Of a stretch of DNA of 64,000 bases, positions 5,225 to 17,053 are shown in pieces. The notes under the pieces were generated by a model. That model searched no databases. It was not told the DNA's origin and saw only the letters and a list, made by a program, of their open reading frames with translations. The stretch is from Escherichia phage REP2: sequence record OQ174501.1; one strand, given 5' to 3'. Positions within the stretch are counted from its first letter, which is position 1. Each line of letters starts with the position of its first letter. Position numbers and translations under genes: made by a program.

Positions 5225-5698
5225 ATGAAAACATATCAAGAATTTATCACTGAAGCAGCTATTAATTCTCAAATTATTGCTGAATCTTTTACCGATCTTT
5301 TGAAATTTAAAAAAGGTCAAAAAATCACTGCTGTATTGGATGATGGTACAGAAGTTGAGATGGATGTACAGGGATATAATTATGCAGTAGATGGAAAACT
5401 GTATAATAAATCTCATGCTAAATTTGATTCATTTGACGACTTTGTTAATACAGTTGAAGATGAAAAAACTCGTAGATCCATTGCAACTGGCGACGCTAAG
5501 GTTCTTATGGCACATGGCCATGAACGCATCCGCGCTAAACAGAATAAAATGGGCGAAGATAATTTTGCATTAGTTGGTTATCAATCTGGTAAACAAACTT
5601 ATGGCTATCAACGTACTGCTACCATGTATAATAAAAATGGTAAAATCGCTTTCGTGAATAGTAAAGGTTCTATTCAGTACGTTAAATCGTTCAAATAA
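5225..5698 (+). CDS. Internal protein (Ip) with capsid-targeting N-terminus
   Basis: MKTYQEFITE|A capsid-targeting sequence; 157 aa. Confidence 0.7.
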   Translation: MKTYQEFITEAAINSQIIAESFTDLLKFKKGQKITAVLDDGTEVEMDVQGYNYAVDGKLYNKSHAKFDSFDDFVNTVEDEKTRRSIATGDAKVLMAHGHERIRAKQNKMGEDNFALVGYQSGKQTYGYQRTATMYNKNGKIAFVNSKGSIQYVKSFK

Positions 5699-5837
5699 TA
5701 TGGGAACAACCTGGACCTCATGATTCTATGAGGGATTCCCGCCAACCTGTAATAAGGTCGAGCCTGAGTGCGGTAATGGGTAAATACAGAAATGGACAAT
5801 TCATGCGCCACGGAATGGCCCAAATTTAGAGAGAATA

Positions 5838-6379
5838 AAATGAGAACATTTTTAACTGGTCCTTATCTATCCCTGATGAATGCTTTTACACACCATTCTG
5901 ACGCTAGAGTAGAAGAAATTTGTAAAAACGAATATATCCCGCCATTTGAAGAATTACTTAAACAGTACTGCACACTTCGACTAGATGGTGGACGTCAATC
6001 TGGTAAATCAACTGCAGTAACTAATTTTGCCGCTAATTGGTTGTATGACGGTGGAACAGTTATTGTTCTTTCTAATACTTCAGCTTACGCTAAAATTTCT
6101 GCAAATAACATTAAAAAGGAATTTTCGCGTTATTCTAATGATGATATACGTTTTCGTTTATTTACTGATTCTGTACGCAGTTTTATTGGTAATAAAGGAA
6201 GTAAGTTCAGAGGTTTATCGCTTTCGCGAATTTTGTATATAATTGACGAGCCTGTCAAATCTCCTGATATGGATAAGATTTATAGTGTCCATATTGACAC
6301 TGTACACTGCTGCTGTAATATTAAATGTTGTATTGGTGGTATTACTCGTCCACAGTTTTTCGTAATCGGAATGCAATGA
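5838..6379 (+). CDS. P-loop (Walker A) protein
   Basis: GGRQSGKST Walker A motif; start placed at the ATG after ggagagaataaa (ORF track starts at 5792); Cys-rich C-terminus. Confidence 0.5.
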
Positions 6380-11313: not shown

Positions 11314-11607
11314 ATGGCCTTAAAAGCAACGGCACTATTTGCCATGCTAGGATTAGCGTTTGCCTTATCTCCACCAATTGAAGCGAATGTCGATCCTCAT
11401 TTTGATAAATTTATGGAATCTGGTATTAGACACGTTTATATGCTTTTTGAAAATAAAAGCGTAGAATCATCTGAACAGTTCTATAGTTTTATGCGAACGA
11501 CTTATAAAAATGACCCGTGCTCTTCCGATTTTGAATGTATAGAGCGAGGCGCGGAGATGGCACAATCATACGCTAGAATTATGAACATTAAATTGGAGAC
11601 TGAATGA
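11314..11607 (+). CDS. rI: Lysis inhibition regulator RI (periplasmic antiholin-type)
   Basis: 97 aa with N-terminal signal/anchor MALKATALFAMLGLAFALS; located next to tk as in T4. Confidence 0.75.
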   Translation: MALKATALFAMLGLAFALSPPIEANVDPHFDKFMESGIRHVYMLFENKSVESSEQFYSFMRTTYKNDPCSSDFECIERGAEMAQSYARIMNIKLETE

Positions 11608-11990
11608 AATTCAGCGACTTTTCACAAAGTGGAAAACCTTCAAAGGCAGATGAATACTTAGGTTTATTAATGGCTGCACAAGCTTATTTTCATTCTGCGC
11701 ATTTTGAAACTAAAAGTTATGCTAGACACAAAGCATACGATTTTATTTTCTCTGAGTTGCCAGATTTGATTGATAAATTTGGTGAGCAATATTTGGGGTA
11801 TTCTGGTAGAAAATACACGCCTTCTATTCCAGATGCCAGTAAACTTCCTACCGACACAATTAAAATGATTGATCGCATACTAGACCAATCTAACAGCATT
11901 TATAAAGAAATGCCTCCAGCCATTCAAAGCACGATAGATGATATTACTGGGATGTTTTACCAGAGTAAATATCTTCTTTCCCTCGAATAA
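11604..11990 (+). CDS. Hypothetical protein (rI.-1 position)
   Basis: 128 aa; ATGA overlap with rI. Confidence 0.55.
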
Positions 11991-11994
11991 CATT

Positions 11995-12017
11995 AGTCTC
12001 CTTCGGGAGACTTTTTT
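11995..12017 (+). terminator. Rho-independent terminator
   Basis: agtctcc-ttcg-ggagact hairpin + T6. Confidence 0.7.
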
Positions 12018-12019
12018 CA

Positions 12020-12062
12020 TTTTACCGGTTTACTTTCCATTTGAGCTGTGATACTATACAAC
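12020..12062 (+). promoter_or_regulatory. T4 early promoter
   Basis: GTTTAC 12028-12033; -10-like gatactat. Confidence 0.5.
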
Positions 12063-12085
12063 TATCGGATAAAGAGGAGAACATC

Positions 12086-12274
12086 ATGAAAATTGAAGCA
12101 CTTAATCAAGAAGGAAATATCTACGTCATCATTAATGGTGATTTTTTCGTCGACATGGATGAAGTTACTAGTGAAGAACTTGTAGAACTTCTTAAGAAAC
12201 GTTATGATATGTGTGATGAAGCTGCAACTCATATGGCGTGTGCAATATTCTCTCTTTCATATGTGGTGGAATAA
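12086..12274 (+). CDS. Hypothetical small protein
   Basis: ATG after SD aaagaggag (ORF track starts at 12041). Confidence 0.5.
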
Positions 12275-12477
12275 TGACTAGAATTGAACAAGCAGATAAA
12301 ATCAAGGAATTAGTGGCTTCAATTCGTAAAGCAGATGAAGAGCTGATTGACTTTGCTTGGTATTCATCGGGTATTTCGAATAAAGGCATTAAAGACTTTG
12401 AAACTAAAGTGGATAATGCTATAGAAGCGTTAGATATGTTTCTTGATGAAATTATTGATCATAATACGAGAGTTTAA
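12274..12477 (+). CDS. Hypothetical small protein
   Basis: TAATG overlap start. Confidence 0.45.
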   Translation: MTRIEQADKIKELVASIRKADEELIDFAWYSSGISNKGIKDFETKVDNAIEALDMFLDEIIDHNTRV

Positions 12478-12479
12478 GT

Positions 12480-12674
12480 ATGCTAACACGTGAACAGTTT
12501 GAAAAAATCATTAAATTAGCACGTGATATTGAAATAGATTCATATCAATTAGCAGTTGAGCATTGTGAAGGATACTCATACGATGGTATAGAAGCAGCTA
12601 AAAAGGATTTGGATAAATCCAAAGCTAAGTTAGTTCAATATCTTGAAATGATTAGGTGGAATAATGAAAACTGA
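12480..12674 (+). CDS. Hypothetical small protein
   Basis: 64 aa. Confidence 0.5.
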   Translation: MLTREQFEKIIKLARDIEIDSYQLAVEHCEGYSYDGIEAAKKDLDKSKAKLVQYLEMIRWNNEN

Positions 12675-12837
12675 AAAGCAGATGTTTTTAATGAAGCTAA
12701 TTGAAGAATATGCTAATGCAGTTTCTGACTATGAGTATTCTGCTAGGGAAAGAGGTACAGCTTTCGCAAAGGAAGAAATGAAAATCATGGTTGATGCTCA
12801 CACAAAGCTTCAGAATTTTATTGAAAACGTCATTTAA
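12664..12837 (+). CDS. Hypothetical small protein (57 aa)
   Basis: Overlapping start; below the ORF-track cut-off. Confidence 0.35.
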   Translation: MKTEKQMFLMKLIEEYANAVSDYEYSARERGTAFAKEEMKIMVDAHTKLQNFIENVI

Positions 12838-12872
12838 TGGTTTACAAGTTGGCAAGGTTATGATATAGTAAT
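12835..12872 (+). promoter_or_regulatory. T4 early promoter with flanking inverted repeat
   Basis: GTTTACA 12840-12846, TATAGT 12864-12869; caagttggcaagg ... cttgtcaactgccaagg arms around the -10. Confidence 0.55.
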
Positions 12873-13004
12873 CTTGTCAACTGCCAAGGAGAAGAGAATG
12901 AAAGTTTTGTTTGTTGTGTATGTGATGATTCAATATAATTATCCAATGTTTACTTATAATCTGGTGAACAACATTATTGATATTATTCAAAGGAGTGTGT
13001 AATT

Positions 13005-13562
13005 GTGGGTGAGTCGAAGAGAATCAATATGAAACGATTAGTATTAGAAGTTAGTCCGCTTTTTGGTGAATTAGCTATAGAAAAAGTAAATAATATGTAT
13101 CGTTTGACACAAGAAGACGATATGCTATATTTTACGCCTAGTGAAATCATTCATTTAACCCAAATTGAATATCCTTATACTGATAAAATAGTAAGCATCA
13201 ATGATGAGCACAAAATTCATTTTTATTCTTCATGCCCAGGATTTAATATTAAAAGTGAGTCAATGTGTTTATCAGTTATCCATTGGGATAGTTTTATAGA
13301 TAAGATTAAATATTTTTATTATTCTAATGAAAGAAAACATAGTTTAAAATGGCTCAAAAATTGCAATGCTATTATTACTAACGCTTGCAATCAGAATGAT
13401 GAAACTGTTTTAAACGTATCAAAATGCTATGAAGATGGTGATGTCTTAACTATTCGTCAAATTGATGATTTTCGATCGTATATTGTCACATTTACCAAAG
13501 ACGAAGCTATTGCGCTAAAGACTTATCTCGATTCTGTCATTCCAACTATGATTTCAAAGTGA
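13005..13562 (+). CDS. Hypothetical protein, paralogue A
   Basis: GTG start 7 nt after aaaggagtg; C-terminus DEAIALKTYLDSVIPTM resembles that of the next gene. Confidence 0.55.
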   Translation: MGESKRINMKRLVLEVSPLFGELAIEKVNNMYRLTQEDDMLYFTPSEIIHLTQIEYPYTDKIVSINDEHKIHFYSSCPGFNIKSESMCLSVIHWDSFIDKIKYFYYSNERKHSLKWLKNCNAIITNACNQNDETVLNVSKCYEDGDVLTIRQIDDFRSYIVTFTKDEAIALKTYLDSVIPTMISK

Positions 13563-13568
13563 GGAAAT

Positions 13569-14090
13569 ATGTTTATTTCAAGTGGAAGTGGTTTAATTCG
13601 TGTTGAATTTAAAAATGACATCTTCCTTATTCAAGGAGATGATATTATTAAAATGAGTTATGATGAAATTAAGAAAATTTGTAATGCTCTTGAAAGTCAT
13701 GGAAAAGTGAACGCTGTTATTGATATTGGTGATTTATGGGTGACACTTTATGAAGTATCCGAAGGATTTAATATTGAAGATGAAAACAACATCTTAGCTA
13801 TTGATAAAAGAAGCGATTTGTTTGATGTGTTAAAAGTTTATGAACAGTCAAACGGTGGAAGAAAAGCTGTATTGATTTATCAAAAACCACATTCATGTGG
13901 AACTGCTTCAATCATTTCAGATATTGAAGATGAAACTGATACTTATATGTGTGTTTTAAAAGCTGGTGGTGACCGTCATCCGGATTTTATTTCTATTCGT
14001 CAAAACAATGGAGAAATTTCATTATCAAAATCAGAAGCTGAAGCTATGATTAAGTATTTAACAACTGTTACACCTTCAATGAAAGGATAA
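13569..14090 (+). CDS. Hypothetical protein, paralogue B
   Basis: C-terminus SEAEAMIKYLTTVTPSM; 173 aa. Confidence 0.55.
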   Translation: MFISSGSGLIRVEFKNDIFLIQGDDIIKMSYDEIKKICNALESHGKVNAVIDIGDLWVTLYEVSEGFNIEDENNILAIDKRSDLFDVLKVYEQSNGGRKAVLIYQKPHSCGTASIISDIEDETDTYMCVLKAGGDRHPDFISIRQNNGEISLSKSEAEAMIKYLTTVTPSMKG

Positions 14091-14092
14091 TT

Positions 14093-14554
14093 ATGATTAT
14101 TAATGAAAACTCTTGGCACTATAAATTATTCAAACTGTTTAACGACGAATGGAAACGACCTAAGACACTGTGTGCATACTTTTGGTCTATTGTTATCCCT
14201 ACATTTTTCGTTTCTTTTTTCGGATGTACTATACTCGCAGGTCTAACTATTATCTGTGCAGAAATCATACAGAAATGGCTTATTTTTGGTAGTTTATGGA
14301 CTCTTCTTCCATCGGCATTTATACTTGCACTTTTGGTTGTTTTACTTATTATCGGTTCATTTGTTATTCCTGCACATTTGCGTGAAAAATATAAAGATTA
14401 TAAATGGAAAAAGGATTATGCTTTACACGTAGAAAATATTGATAGGGCGTATAAAGGTTTACCTCCTATTCAACCAAAGAAATCGGTTATCGTTGAATTT
14501 TTAAAAGCTCGTAAAGCTAAAGTATGTCCTGTTATTGAATATAAGGCTGAATGA
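14093..14554 (+). CDS. Membrane protein (3 predicted TM)
   Basis: Hydrophobic segments; ATGATG overlap with the downstream NTase gene. Confidence 0.55.
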   Translation: MIINENSWHYKLFKLFNDEWKRPKTLCAYFWSIVIPTFFVSFFGCTILAGLTIICAEIIQKWLIFGSLWTLLPSAFILALLVVLLIIGSFVIPAHLREKYKDYKWKKDYALHVENIDRAYKGLPPIQPKKSVIVEFLKARKAKVCPVIEYKAE

Positions 14555-15564
14555 TGAAAACAGTAATGAAAAGCTATTTTGGTAGTCATCTTTATGGAAC
14601 TTCTACCCCAGAATCTGATGTAGATTTTAAAGAAATCTTTGTTCCTCCTGCTCGCGATATTCTTATCGGAAATGTTAAAGAGCATATGAGTAAAAACACT
14701 AACAACACATCATCTAAAAACACTAAAGATGATATTGACCATGAACTATACAGTCTTAAATATTTCTTTAAATTAGCAGCAGATGGTGAAACTGTAGCGT
14801 TAGATATGCTTCACACTCCACCTGAACTAGTGGTTAAATCTGATTTGCCTGATGTGTGGAAGTTTATTCAAGACAACCGTTCTCGTTTTTATACGACTAA
14901 CATGAAATCCTATTTAGGATATGTTCGCAAGCAAGCTTCTAAATACGGTGTCAAGGGTTCTCGTTTGGCTGCATTACGCGATGTATTGAAAGTAGTTAAT
15001 CAAATCCCCGAGCAATGGGTTGATTACCAAGAAGACGGTTCCATTAAGCAGCGTCGTACTAAAGTTGAAGATATTAAGCATCGTCTTCCAGAAAACGAAT
15101 TCTGTGAATGGGTGTTCCATAATCATGAGAAAACAGGTCCACAAACGTTCTACACAGTGTTGGGTCGTAAATATCAGACAACGCTTTCTCTTATTGAGCT
15201 TAAGCAGTCACTGAACAAATTAGATGCTGAATATGGTGAACGTGCTCGTAAGGCCGAAGCCAATGAAGGTATTGACTGGAAAGCTCTGAGTCATGCTTGT
15301 CGTGGTGGACTTCAACTATTGGAAATTTACAAAACTGGTGACTTGGTTTATCCACTCCAAGATGCTCCATTTATTCTCGACGTGAAGTTGGGTAAACATC
15401 CATTTAAAACAGTTCAAGAGTTTTTGGAAGATGTGGTCGATCAAGTAGAAGCAGCATCTACTGAAGCTTCTAAGAATGGTATGCCTAAAACAGTAGATAT
15501 GAGCTTTTGGAATAATTTCCTCGAACAGGTTTATCTTGAAAACCACCGAAGTTATTATAAATGA
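14551..15564 (+). CDS. Pol-beta-superfamily nucleotidyltransferase-like protein
   Basis: FGSHLYGTSTPESDVDF (GS-x11-DxD) and downstream DDIDHE acidic motif; 337 aa. Confidence 0.6.
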   Translation: MMKTVMKSYFGSHLYGTSTPESDVDFKEIFVPPARDILIGNVKEHMSKNTNNTSSKNTKDDIDHELYSLKYFFKLAADGETVALDMLHTPPELVVKSDLPDVWKFIQDNRSRFYTTNMKSYLGYVRKQASKYGVKGSRLAALRDVLKVVNQIPEQWVDYQEDGSIKQRRTKVEDIKHRLPENEFCEWVFHNHEKTGPQTFYTVLGRKYQTTLSLIELKQSLNKLDAEYGERARKAEANEGIDWKALSHACRGGLQLLEIYKTGDLVYPLQDAPFILDVKLGKHPFKTVQEFLEDVVDQVEAASTEASKNGMPKTVDMSFWNNFLEQVYLENHRSYYK

Positions 15565-15566
15565 TA

Positions 15567-15591
15567 GGGAGCCTTCGGGCTCCCTTTTTTT
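15567..15591 (+). terminator. Rho-independent terminator
   Basis: gggagcc-ttcg-ggctccc + T7. Confidence 0.75.
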
Positions 15592-15604
15592 ATTTCAAAA
15601 ATTT

Positions 15605-15652
15605 TTTCACAAAATTGTTTACAAGCATAAAGCTTTATGGTACTATACAACT
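15605..15652 (+). promoter_or_regulatory. T4 early promoter
   Basis: GTTTAC 15617-15622, TACTAT 15641-15646; leader tatacaactatcaact...ggagaataaaATG shared with 705-790 and 43380-43458. Confidence 0.6.
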
Positions 15653-15680
15653 ATCAACTGATACGGATTTGGAGAATAAA

Positions 15681-16649
15681 ATGAAAACTGTAACTATCAA
15701 TAAGGGTATCTACTTCGGTAAAGAAATCTCTGGAACTTTTGAGCTCTTAGGCGAATGGTTCCCAGATAATGCTCCAGTAGATGCACAAGGAGATGGTAAA
15801 GTTTTTGTTGAAATTGACGGTAAACGTCGCGGTGTTTGGGTTTACAAATCAGACATTTCATATGATGGTGTAAAAGTTGAAGAAGTTAAAGAAACGTATG
15901 AAGATATGAAAACCCGCATTAATAAAAGATTTAATGTTATGGGAATGATGACGAATGGTATTATTAACGGAAACATTCGTTCATTAATTATCTCTGGTGC
16001 GGCAGGCATTGGTAAAACGTATTCTTTAGATAAAGCTTTAAATAAAGCAAATGATATTGGATACATTGAATATAAAAGCATTAATGGTAAAATCTCTGGT
16101 ATTGGTCTTTATGAACAGCTTTGGAATAATCGTGAAGAGAATTCTGTCCTTTTGATTGATGATGTGGATGTTTTCTCTGATATGGACATTCTTAATCTTC
16201 TGAAAGCTGCTCTGGACACCGGAGAGACCCGTAAAGTCTGCTGGAGCACTGCGTCTTCTTACTTAGAAGAAAAAGGCATTGAGCGTGAGTTTGAATTTAA
16301 AGGAACGATTGTTTTTATCACAAACGTTGACATTGACCGCGAATTAGACCGTGGTACTAAACTTGCTCCACATTTACAAGCATTAGTGTCCCGCTCGGTT
16401 TATTTGGATTTGGGTGTTCACACTAATGAAGAAATTATGGTCAGGGTTGAAGATGTTATTCTTTCAACTGACATGATGCAAAAGCGCGGTCTTTCTGATG
16501 AAGAAACTTATAAAGCATTATCATGGATGAAAGTTAATGTTAATCGTTTACGCAATGTTTCACTGCGTACTGCTCTTTATCTTGCTGACTTTATTATGAC
16601 CGACAAAAACGGTTGGGAAGAAATTGCTGAGGTTACTCTTCTGAAATAA
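15681..16649 (+). CDS. AAA+ family ATPase
   Basis: Walker A GAAGIGKT, Walker B VLLIDDVD; start at ATG after ggagaataaa (ORF track starts at 15561). Confidence 0.65.
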   Translation: MKTVTINKGIYFGKEISGTFELLGEWFPDNAPVDAQGDGKVFVEIDGKRRGVWVYKSDISYDGVKVEEVKETYEDMKTRINKRFNVMGMMTNGIINGNIRSLIISGAAGIGKTYSLDKALNKANDIGYIEYKSINGKISGIGLYEQLWNNREENSVLLIDDVDVFSDMDILNLLKAALDTGETRKVCWSTASSYLEEKGIEREFEFKGTIVFITNVDIDRELDRGTKLAPHLQALVSRSVYLDLGVHTNEEIMVRVEDVILSTDMMQKRGLSDEETYKALSWMKVNVNRLRNVSLRTALYLADFIMTDKNGWEEIAEVTLLK

Positions 16650-16747
16650 TTCATAAGAGGACTTCTATGACAAAAAGGCAGTTCAGAAATAGATTATATG
16701 GACTGCCATTAAAAAGATGACTAGAATTAAACTGGTAAATGGAGGTA

Positions 16748-17053
16748 ATGATGTTATACTCAAAGGCTCGTGAAATTTACGAAACTAAAATTAAAGAAGC
16801 AGTATTTCAGTTCGCAACAACGATGCGATGGACAAATGATTGGGAGTATTCAAAAAATCATAAGAAGCCCATGGTGACAAGAAAGGCTCATATGTTAGTG
16901 TTAATAGACCGTGAGCAGATTAAAGCCCGAGAAGCCCTCCAGAATCATAAAAAGGCTGCCTTTGAATGGTTTATGGATAACACCGCTCCTGAGACTAAGA
17001 AAGCAGTGAGCGCGTGGTTCAGTGGAAAAAATTGTGAAAGAAGTTTCTTTTAG
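16748..17053 (+). CDS. Hypothetical protein
   Basis: SD tggagg; start ambiguous among 16739, 16748 and 16751. Confidence 0.5.
   Translation: MMLYSKAREIYETKIKEAVFQFATTMRWTNDWEYSKNHKKPMVTRKAHMLVLIDREQIKAREALQNHKKAAFEWFMDNTAPETKKAVSAWFSGKNCERSFF

Follow-up and report, generated by a model that had tools for sequence, protein, structure and literature searches.

The early mobD.2–mobD.1–nrdC.11 block of Escherichia phage REP2: an RlaP-family nucleotidyltransferase separable from its membrane-protein neighbour

In Escherichia phage REP2, a compact block of early genes (positions 12835–15592 of the 64,000-nucleotide stretch of record OQ174501.1 analysed here, hereafter the window) joins the gene for a Pol-beta-type nucleotidyltransferase (NTase) to a gene for a small membrane protein. 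A preliminary description, made from the sequence alone, had taken this coupling as a sign of a nucleotide-signalling or nucleotidyl-modifying module, which raises the question of whether the two genes form a functional pair and, if they do not, what the NTase is for. Megablast of the block against GenBank phages returned 743 records, of which the top one was Escherichia phage REP3 (100% identity) and the others were Tequatrovirus and related T-even phages; by sequence identity, the source of the window is assigned to a T2/T6-like Tequatrovirus. Comparison with annotated relatives and with T4 identified the block as the T4 mobD.2–mobD.1–...–nrdC.11 region, lying between the rI/mobD.3 genes and nrdC.10. 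It holds a mobD.2 homologue, two genes of the y05I family (genes 1 and 2, the first corresponding to mobD.1), the membrane-protein gene (gene 3) and the NTase gene nrdC.11 (gene 4). This is a known early gene block, and both the NTase and its family assignment were already known. We think it reasonably probable that the block is an early, dispensable accessory operon made of two separable units, in which NrdC.11 acts as a counter-defence that repairs RNA 3' ends, and the y05I and membrane-protein pair is not required for the NTase.

NrdC.11 (gene 4, 14551–15564, + strand, 337 amino acids) is 97% identical to the T4 protein and is conserved in about 1,500 sequenced T4-like phages. It matched the Pfam family RlaP (PF10127) with 43.9 bits, where the cutoff is 23 (E = 3.1e-11; residues 7–135, profile positions 23–142 of 249), and precomputed PF10127 assignments were present on all 120 homologues among the matches listed. 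A comparison with ten canonical RlaP proteins of 252–277 amino acids using hhalign gave a probability of 94% (E = 1e-7) and placed the GS, DxD and D63 positions of NrdC.11 on invariant residues of canonical RlaP. Searched exhaustively, a set of 1.8 billion cluster representatives yielded 3,502 relatives, and residue conservation was assessed across 145 full-length representatives (34–57% identity). Among these, G11 and S12 are conserved in 100%, D23 and D25 in 99%, D61 in 95%, D63 in 97% and D85 in 96%, and a second conserved block spans the C-terminal half (Y132, G229, R231, DWK242–244, H248, R251, P268, K279 and G281). The preliminary description had recognised a Pol-beta NTase with both signature motifs, which the RlaP match and the conserved catalytic residues bear out; only the spacing of the first motif, given as GS-x11-DVD, has to be corrected to G11-S12-x10-D23-V-D25. 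It had also proposed two checks on its reading, namely that the catalytic residues be kept across homologues and that the four genes occur together in related phages, and the residues are indeed kept. In its opinion the proteins were otherwise unrecognisable, which does not hold for genes 1 and 2 (Pfam T4_y05I_N and T4_y05I_C) or for gene 4 (RlaP, PF10127). From these sequence comparisons we classify NrdC.11 as a divergent RlaP-family Pol-beta nucleotidyltransferase, and we regard its membership as solid.

An AlphaFold2 model of NrdC.11, with a predicted local distance difference test score (pLDDT) of 94.9, consists of the NTase core, a helical segment, a beta-rich insert (residues 155–209) and a C-terminal helical domain with a terminal helix. 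Sequence searches of the PDB, using the single NTase or a 136-sequence profile, found nothing meaningful, and the PDB copy holds no RlaP structure. For this reason Foldseek with the NTase model returned only weak NTase matches from the PDB (E ≥ 3e-3, template-modelling (TM) score ≤ 0.43). HalB was the closest solved structural neighbour among these uniformly weak matches, and no cGAS, CD-NTase or OAS structure was among them.

What members of this family do has been addressed by experiment in bacteria. NrdC.11 itself was matched to a nucleotidyltransferase COG (Nolan et al, 2006; PMC1524935). According to the passages on the name in two later accounts (bioRxiv 10.64898/2025.12.29.696909; PMC7824862), PF10127 was called RlaP by Burroughs and Aravind for its RNA ligase association. 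Phage RlaP was predicted to restore nucleotides lost from cleaved RNA ahead of ligation (Iyer et al, 2021; PMC7824862). RlaP from P. fluorescens and P. aeruginosa adds 1–2 nucleoside monophosphates (NMPs) onto RNA 3'-OH ends (Carruthers, Fatma and Huang; bioRxiv 10.64898/2025.12.29.696909, preprint 2025); the addition is untemplated, extends to many E. coli RNAs with little nucleoside triphosphate specificity, and prefers cleaved-tRNA mimics, while E. coli proteins and genomic DNA are not labelled. The same preprint reports that these enzymes help over-damaged tRNA to regain aminoacylation, proposes that RlaP acts as antidote against ribotoxins of the 'smart' kind, RloC among them, and places T4 NrdC.11 in PF10127 cluster 5, with function unknown. 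In T4, the nrdC.11–mobD.3 stretch can be deleted (PMC9825161). Neither NrdC.11 nor MobD.1 turned up as the subject of a functional study in full-text literature searches.

The genomic surroundings of NrdC.11-type genes point in the same direction. A scan for the subfamily motif, with each prokaryotic species represented by one genome, gave 80 bacterial or archaeal loci with full-length NrdC.11-type proteins (33–53% identity), many of them on megabase chromosomal contigs. RtcB, Pnkp or Ro60/TROVE is encoded within 6 kb in 15/80 of these loci, and in 10/80 a canonical-size RlaP gene lies directly downstream of the NrdC.11-type gene, a tandem that suggests non-redundant specificity. On a Nitrosospira contig (CAADGK010000054.1, locus L064, 1558–13378) the order is Ro60/TROVE, RtcB, RtcA, NrdC.11-type RlaP, canonical RlaP, Hen1, MoxR AAA ATPase, vWA/DUF2201 and Pnkp. 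A T4-like metagenomic contig (IMGVR_UViG_3300031952_001553, locus L031, 172–6791) carries an NTase of 43% identity, after which come genes for a 64-residue transmembrane protein, an ATP-dependent ligase, RtcB and RNase H. With such RNA-repair neighbours in bacteria, the divergent NrdC.11 subfamily shares the genomic association that defines RlaP. NrdC.11 thus resembles the known RlaP systems in scoring above the Pfam threshold, in its aligned GS, DxD and D positions, and in bacterial relatives that stand beside RtcB, RtcA, Pnkp/Hen1 and Ro60.

The module idea was examined by synteny in 31 viral loci plus T4. The closest relatives (L001, L003, L004 and L024) have all four genes, NTase included. 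T4 (L002) has MobD.1 and the NTase, an HNH homing endonuclease gene, mobD, replacing genes 2 and 3, and L005 has none of the upstream genes and an NTase of 97% identity. JS10-like loci (for example L006–L011, L025 and L030; NTase about 82–85% identical) have a single y05I gene, then the membrane gene, then the NTase. Where the NTase is about 65–69% identical (including L023, which corresponds to Enterobacter phage PG7), a gene for the y05I C domain only (y05I_C) abuts the membrane gene, followed by one or two unrelated genes and then the NTase. The NTase is alone in L026, L027 and L029 (52–55%; L029 corresponds to Aeromonas phage 44RR2.8t) and in more distant phages. The NTase is found without the membrane gene in T4, L005, L026, L027, L029, L031 and L033, and the bacterial neighbourhoods analysed revealed no recurrent membrane partner.

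This distribution does not agree with an NTase and membrane-protein module for nucleotide signalling or modification: T4 and L005 keep the NTase (97%) without the membrane gene, the NTase stands by itself in L026, L027, L029 and bacteria, and elsewhere unrelated genes intervene. Nor are the four genes kept together as a set across related phages, the second of the checks mentioned above. The steadier partnership of the membrane gene lies upstream. Homologues of it were found in 26/31 viral loci, and in 24 of the 26 a y05I or y05I_C-only gene ends no more than about 25 nucleotides upstream of it; the exceptions are L023, which has a sub-threshold open reading frame (ORF) with the y05I motif, and L032, which has a y05I_C-like ORF downstream of the membrane gene. 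The distance from membrane gene to NTase ranges from an overlap to about 1.7 kb. The 24/26 pairing indicates that it is y05I_C and the membrane protein that form the tight, conserved pair, a small new observation that we take to define a second early module, and the NTase appears, from these gene orders, to be evolutionarily independent of the y05I and membrane genes. As an operon the cassette is lineage-specific, not a conserved system. A more constant neighbour of the NTase than the membrane gene is nrdC.10 (15681–16649, + strand), which encodes a 322-residue P-loop/AAA-like ATPase with weak Pfam matches to AAA_14, AAA_22 and nSTAND3 and accompanies the NTase in 22/31 viral loci (70–78% identity).

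Judging from the bacterial homologues and from gene context, an RNA 3' end is the most likely substrate of NrdC.11 and tRNA repair its most likely role. With two metal ions and the carboxylates of D23, D25 and D63 as its triad, NrdC.11 would add 1–2 NMPs, without a template, to broken RNAs at their 3'-OH. Its likely substrates would be tRNA 5' halves that lack a nucleotide after cleavage by RloC-type host anticodon nucleases. T-even phages encode Pnk and RNA ligases; phage Pnk and Rnl1/Rnl2 could then heal and seal the ends, giving a usable tRNA. The logic is that of T4 tRNA repair, in which Pnk (PseT) and Rnl1 act against the PrrC anticodon nuclease, in that a phage early enzyme mends tRNA breaks inflicted by the host; RlaP has been proposed to supply the nucleotide excised by RloC-type nucleases before Pnk/Rnl1 sealing. 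The comparison differs in that NrdC.11 is only predicted to take part in this pathway and that its gene lies in a different genome region. The second unit, the y05I gene or genes with the small membrane protein, would be a translationally coupled, conserved pair that can be separated from the NTase. If NrdC.11 does supply the nucleotide removed by RloC, it would complete the classic Pnk and Rnl1 tRNA-repair counter-defence of T4 and account for the phage response to nucleases that have evolved to make simple religation fail. The repair hypothesis has already been published for RlaP generally, with T4 NrdC.11 named as a member; what is added here is supporting context, in the form of the RNA-repair neighbourhoods of the subfamily and the separability from the membrane gene. 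In general outline, the preliminary description's idea of a role in host takeover or anti-defence, here for a unit that is non-essential, is taken as correct.

Several observations weigh against RNA repair by a free-standing NrdC.11. Only residues ~6–133 are detectably homologous to canonical RlaP by Pfam and hhalign. [quoted passage not shown] In addition, the gene in T4-like phages has no adjacent ligase: no RNA ligase or Pnk gene adjoins nrdC.11 in the window or in typical T4-like loci, the neighbours here being the y05I genes, the membrane protein and the nrdC.10 AAA ATPase, with no ligase in the operon, so the link to repair rests on homologues elsewhere. Finally, the membrane gene abuts or overlaps the NTase start in 14/31 viral loci, which leaves room for some functional coupling of the two.

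Other activities of the NTase have to be weighed against repair. Its position under early promoters, together with the untemplated action of RlaP on many E. coli RNAs and its little NTP specificity (bioRxiv 10.64898/2025.12.29.696909), would suit RNA 3'-tailing for takeover, with short tails added early to host (or phage) transcripts or tRNAs and altering their stability or function. We consider this unlikely, as RlaP is limited to 1–2 nucleotides and favours cleaved-tRNA mimics (bioRxiv 10.64898/2025.12.29.696909), and the genes with which it is associated in genomes are specifically those for ligases, Pnkp/Hen1, RtcA/B and Ro60. To about the same degree we doubt that the enzyme nucleotidylylates an acceptor other than RNA, be it as an MNT-like AMPylase (for example one neutralising a HEPN toxin) or as a KNTase/ANT/Lnu-like small-molecule modifier. 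The sequence family is RlaP and not MNT or ANT, the bacterial neighbours of the NTase are RNA-repair enzymes, no HEPN gene adjoins it, and neither proteins nor genomic DNA of E. coli were labelled by bacterial RlaP (bioRxiv 10.64898/2025.12.29.696909). An MNT-HEPN system, recognised as a small MNT beside a HEPN gene with an Rx4-6H motif, is not what is found at this locus, and neither is a CD-NTase, cGAS or OAS fold or sequence with a signal-sensing effector, as in the cyclic-oligonucleotide-based antiphage signalling system (CBASS). On the grounds of family and gene context we set aside the CD-NTase/CBASS, MNT-HEPN and aminoglycoside-NTase identities.

There is also the proposal that NTase and membrane protein act as a signalling pair after all, a nucleotide or oligonucleotide signal gating or recruiting the membrane protein in the manner of CBASS effectors or of Hailong, for takeover, superinfection exclusion or anti-defence. 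In Hailong, the NTase HalB makes oligo-dA that gates the membrane channel HalA. The weak structural resemblance to HalB keeps a small probability for this reading, the least supported of the rivals, and we consider it very unlikely. There is no sequence similarity, the NTase has 337 residues against 217 in HalB, and the obligate pair of NTase and membrane effector is not seen here, where the pairing is not conserved and the constant partner of the membrane protein is a y05I_C gene. The setting also differs, being a phage early operon and not a bacterial defence island. More specifically, NrdC.11 could be a HalB-like template-independent oligonucleotide synthase whose product gates the co-translated membrane protein, or replenishes an oligo-dA guard signal and so blunts Hailong-type defences; this we hold to be more improbable still. 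RNA 3'-end repair thus remains the reading that we favour for NrdC.11.

The promoter, tight gene packing and strong terminator of the preliminary description are all present in the sequence. A T4-type early promoter (12840–12869, + strand, GTTTACAAGTTGGCAAGGTTATGATATAGT) combines a GTTTACA -35 element, a 17-nucleotide spacer and a TG-extended TATAGT -10 element, scoring 10/12 with the TG extension in a simple scan. In the window, GTTTAC-N16-19-TANNNT is found 24 times where 3.35 sites would be expected, a count that 0/100 shuffles reached, and nearly all sites are on the + strand ahead of genes. Five ORFs follow on the + strand, not four, as the mobD.2 homologue (12898–13002) had been overlooked. 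Genes 1 and 2 are separated by 6 nucleotides and genes 2 and 3 by 2 nucleotides, and the ATGATG overlap described for genes 3 and 4 consists of an ATGA overlap and, after it, another ATG in frame. The intrinsic terminator (15566–15592, + strand) has the form AGGGAGCC-TTCG-GGCTCCCT followed by T7, with a G+C-rich stem of 8 pairs, 6 of them G-C. A further early promoter directly past it (15617–15646) drives nrdC.10.

The cassette had been called self-contained, which is right insofar as it has a promoter of its own. A second early promoter lies upstream (12028–12057, + strand), directly after a terminator at 11995–12012, and no terminator-like site was found between it and 12840; the block therefore also forms the downstream end of a longer early unit, and read-through probably yields transcripts common to the small mobD.5–mobD.2a-like genes and the cassette. 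Inside the coding sequence of gene 1, the top sigma-70 match of a 7-kb scan (13104–13131, + strand; TTGACA-16-TATATT with a TG upstream, 11/12) may either serve genes 2–4 as an internal promoter or have arisen by chance. An Rfam scan of 11500–17000 returned an L20_leader candidate overlapping the NTase 3' end and the terminator (15437–15598, + strand), which we attribute to chance (27.8 bits against a gathering threshold of 58.7, E = 0.021).

The mobD.2 homologue, a 34-residue ORF, has an AAGGAG Shine-Dalgarno sequence, matches phrog_3515 (E = 3.4e-21) and is 88% identical to T4 mobD.2, with 53–60% identity in more distant loci. Gene 1 starts at 13005 (GTG) or 13029 (ATG), the ATG being the start annotated in its relatives, and ends at 13562. 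At 86% identity, it is the orthologue of T4 MobD.1 (Y05I). Both y05I domains were detected in gene 1 (T4_y05I_N, PF24449, 133.8 bits, E = 3.6e-39; T4_y05I_C, PF24448, 73.8 bits, E = 1.4e-20) and in gene 2 (13569–14090; 119.6 bits, E = 1e-34 and 82.7 bits, E = 2.3e-23, respectively), the cutoffs being 24.9 bits for PF24449 and 27 bits for PF24448. The two genes had been described as paralogues sharing a C-terminal motif. They are paralogues, but BLASTP aligns them over their full length (27% identity, E = 2e-9), so the homology is not limited to that motif, K-x-E-A-x-A-L-x-x-Y-L-x-x-V-x-P-T-M, within which an alignment of 28 family members has an invariant K...YL. Compared with T4 MobD.1/Y05I, both domains are shared by genes 1 and 2, which are tandemly duplicated here; among the 31 viral loci the duplication occurs only in L001, L003, L004 and L024, and T4 lacks gene 2. 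In other genera the family is reduced to the ~70-residue C domain, as stand-alone proteins of 65–87 amino acids. Protein P0304 is a natural chimera, its N-terminal two-thirds resembling gene 1 and its C-terminal third gene 2, which implies recombination between the tandem paralogues. A y05I paralogue modelled from a shallow alignment gave a poor model (pLDDT 59.9, falling below 50 in the C domain); a fold search with it found no match at E ≤ 0.001, the best partial matches being small beta-beta-beta-alpha repeat proteins (2nvn, 2it9 and SsgB, TM score 0.33–0.44), and Pfam's label 'putative transcription factor' is neither supported nor refuted.

Gene 3 (14093–14554, 153 amino acids) encodes a small integral membrane protein, as had been stated, although not readily one with three spans. 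Hydropathy analysis shows a single hydrophobic region of 72 residues (25–96), with E57/K61 as its sole break, and a net positive charge on both tails, a pattern that suits two (or four) transmembrane spans better. The protein matches phrog_944 'membrane protein' (1.5e-49) and has no Pfam, NCBIfam or PADLOC family; the last two databases gave no match for any of the five proteins. Word-indexed homologue searches with gene 2 and the membrane protein found close relatives only, and tblastn with gene 3 reached at least 936 phage records. The gene diverges fast, with 25–35% identity where the NTase has 65–85%. Its family is held together by an N-terminal SWHYKL...P+xLCxYFW and a C-terminal KxKxCPx[IL]E[FY]K motif, each with a cysteine, and the homologues in L023 (4767–5219) and L032 (3606–4328) belong to the same motif family. 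The L032 protein and phrog_944 have an extra N-terminal domain of about 85 residues, which was considered as a fused y05I_C domain in L032 and dismissed, the match not being significant.

Two further features border the NTase in related phages. In T4, mobD (HNH; 12430–13209, − strand) lies immediately 5' of the nrdC.11 start, and in L009 a 79%-identical mobD copy (5240–5995) occupies the same place relative to the NTase (82%), with the membrane gene retained; the shared position suggests that the mobD target is at the 5' end of nrdC.11. Just past the NTase stop, a protein of 84–86 amino acids with two transmembrane segments is encoded in L013 (7015–7269), L016 (7069–7329), L019 (7014–7274) and L032 (7195–7419), where the NTase is 61–79% identical. 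Because similar small transmembrane paralogues recur elsewhere in those loci, this protein is probably a feature of the hyperplastic region and not an NTase partner.

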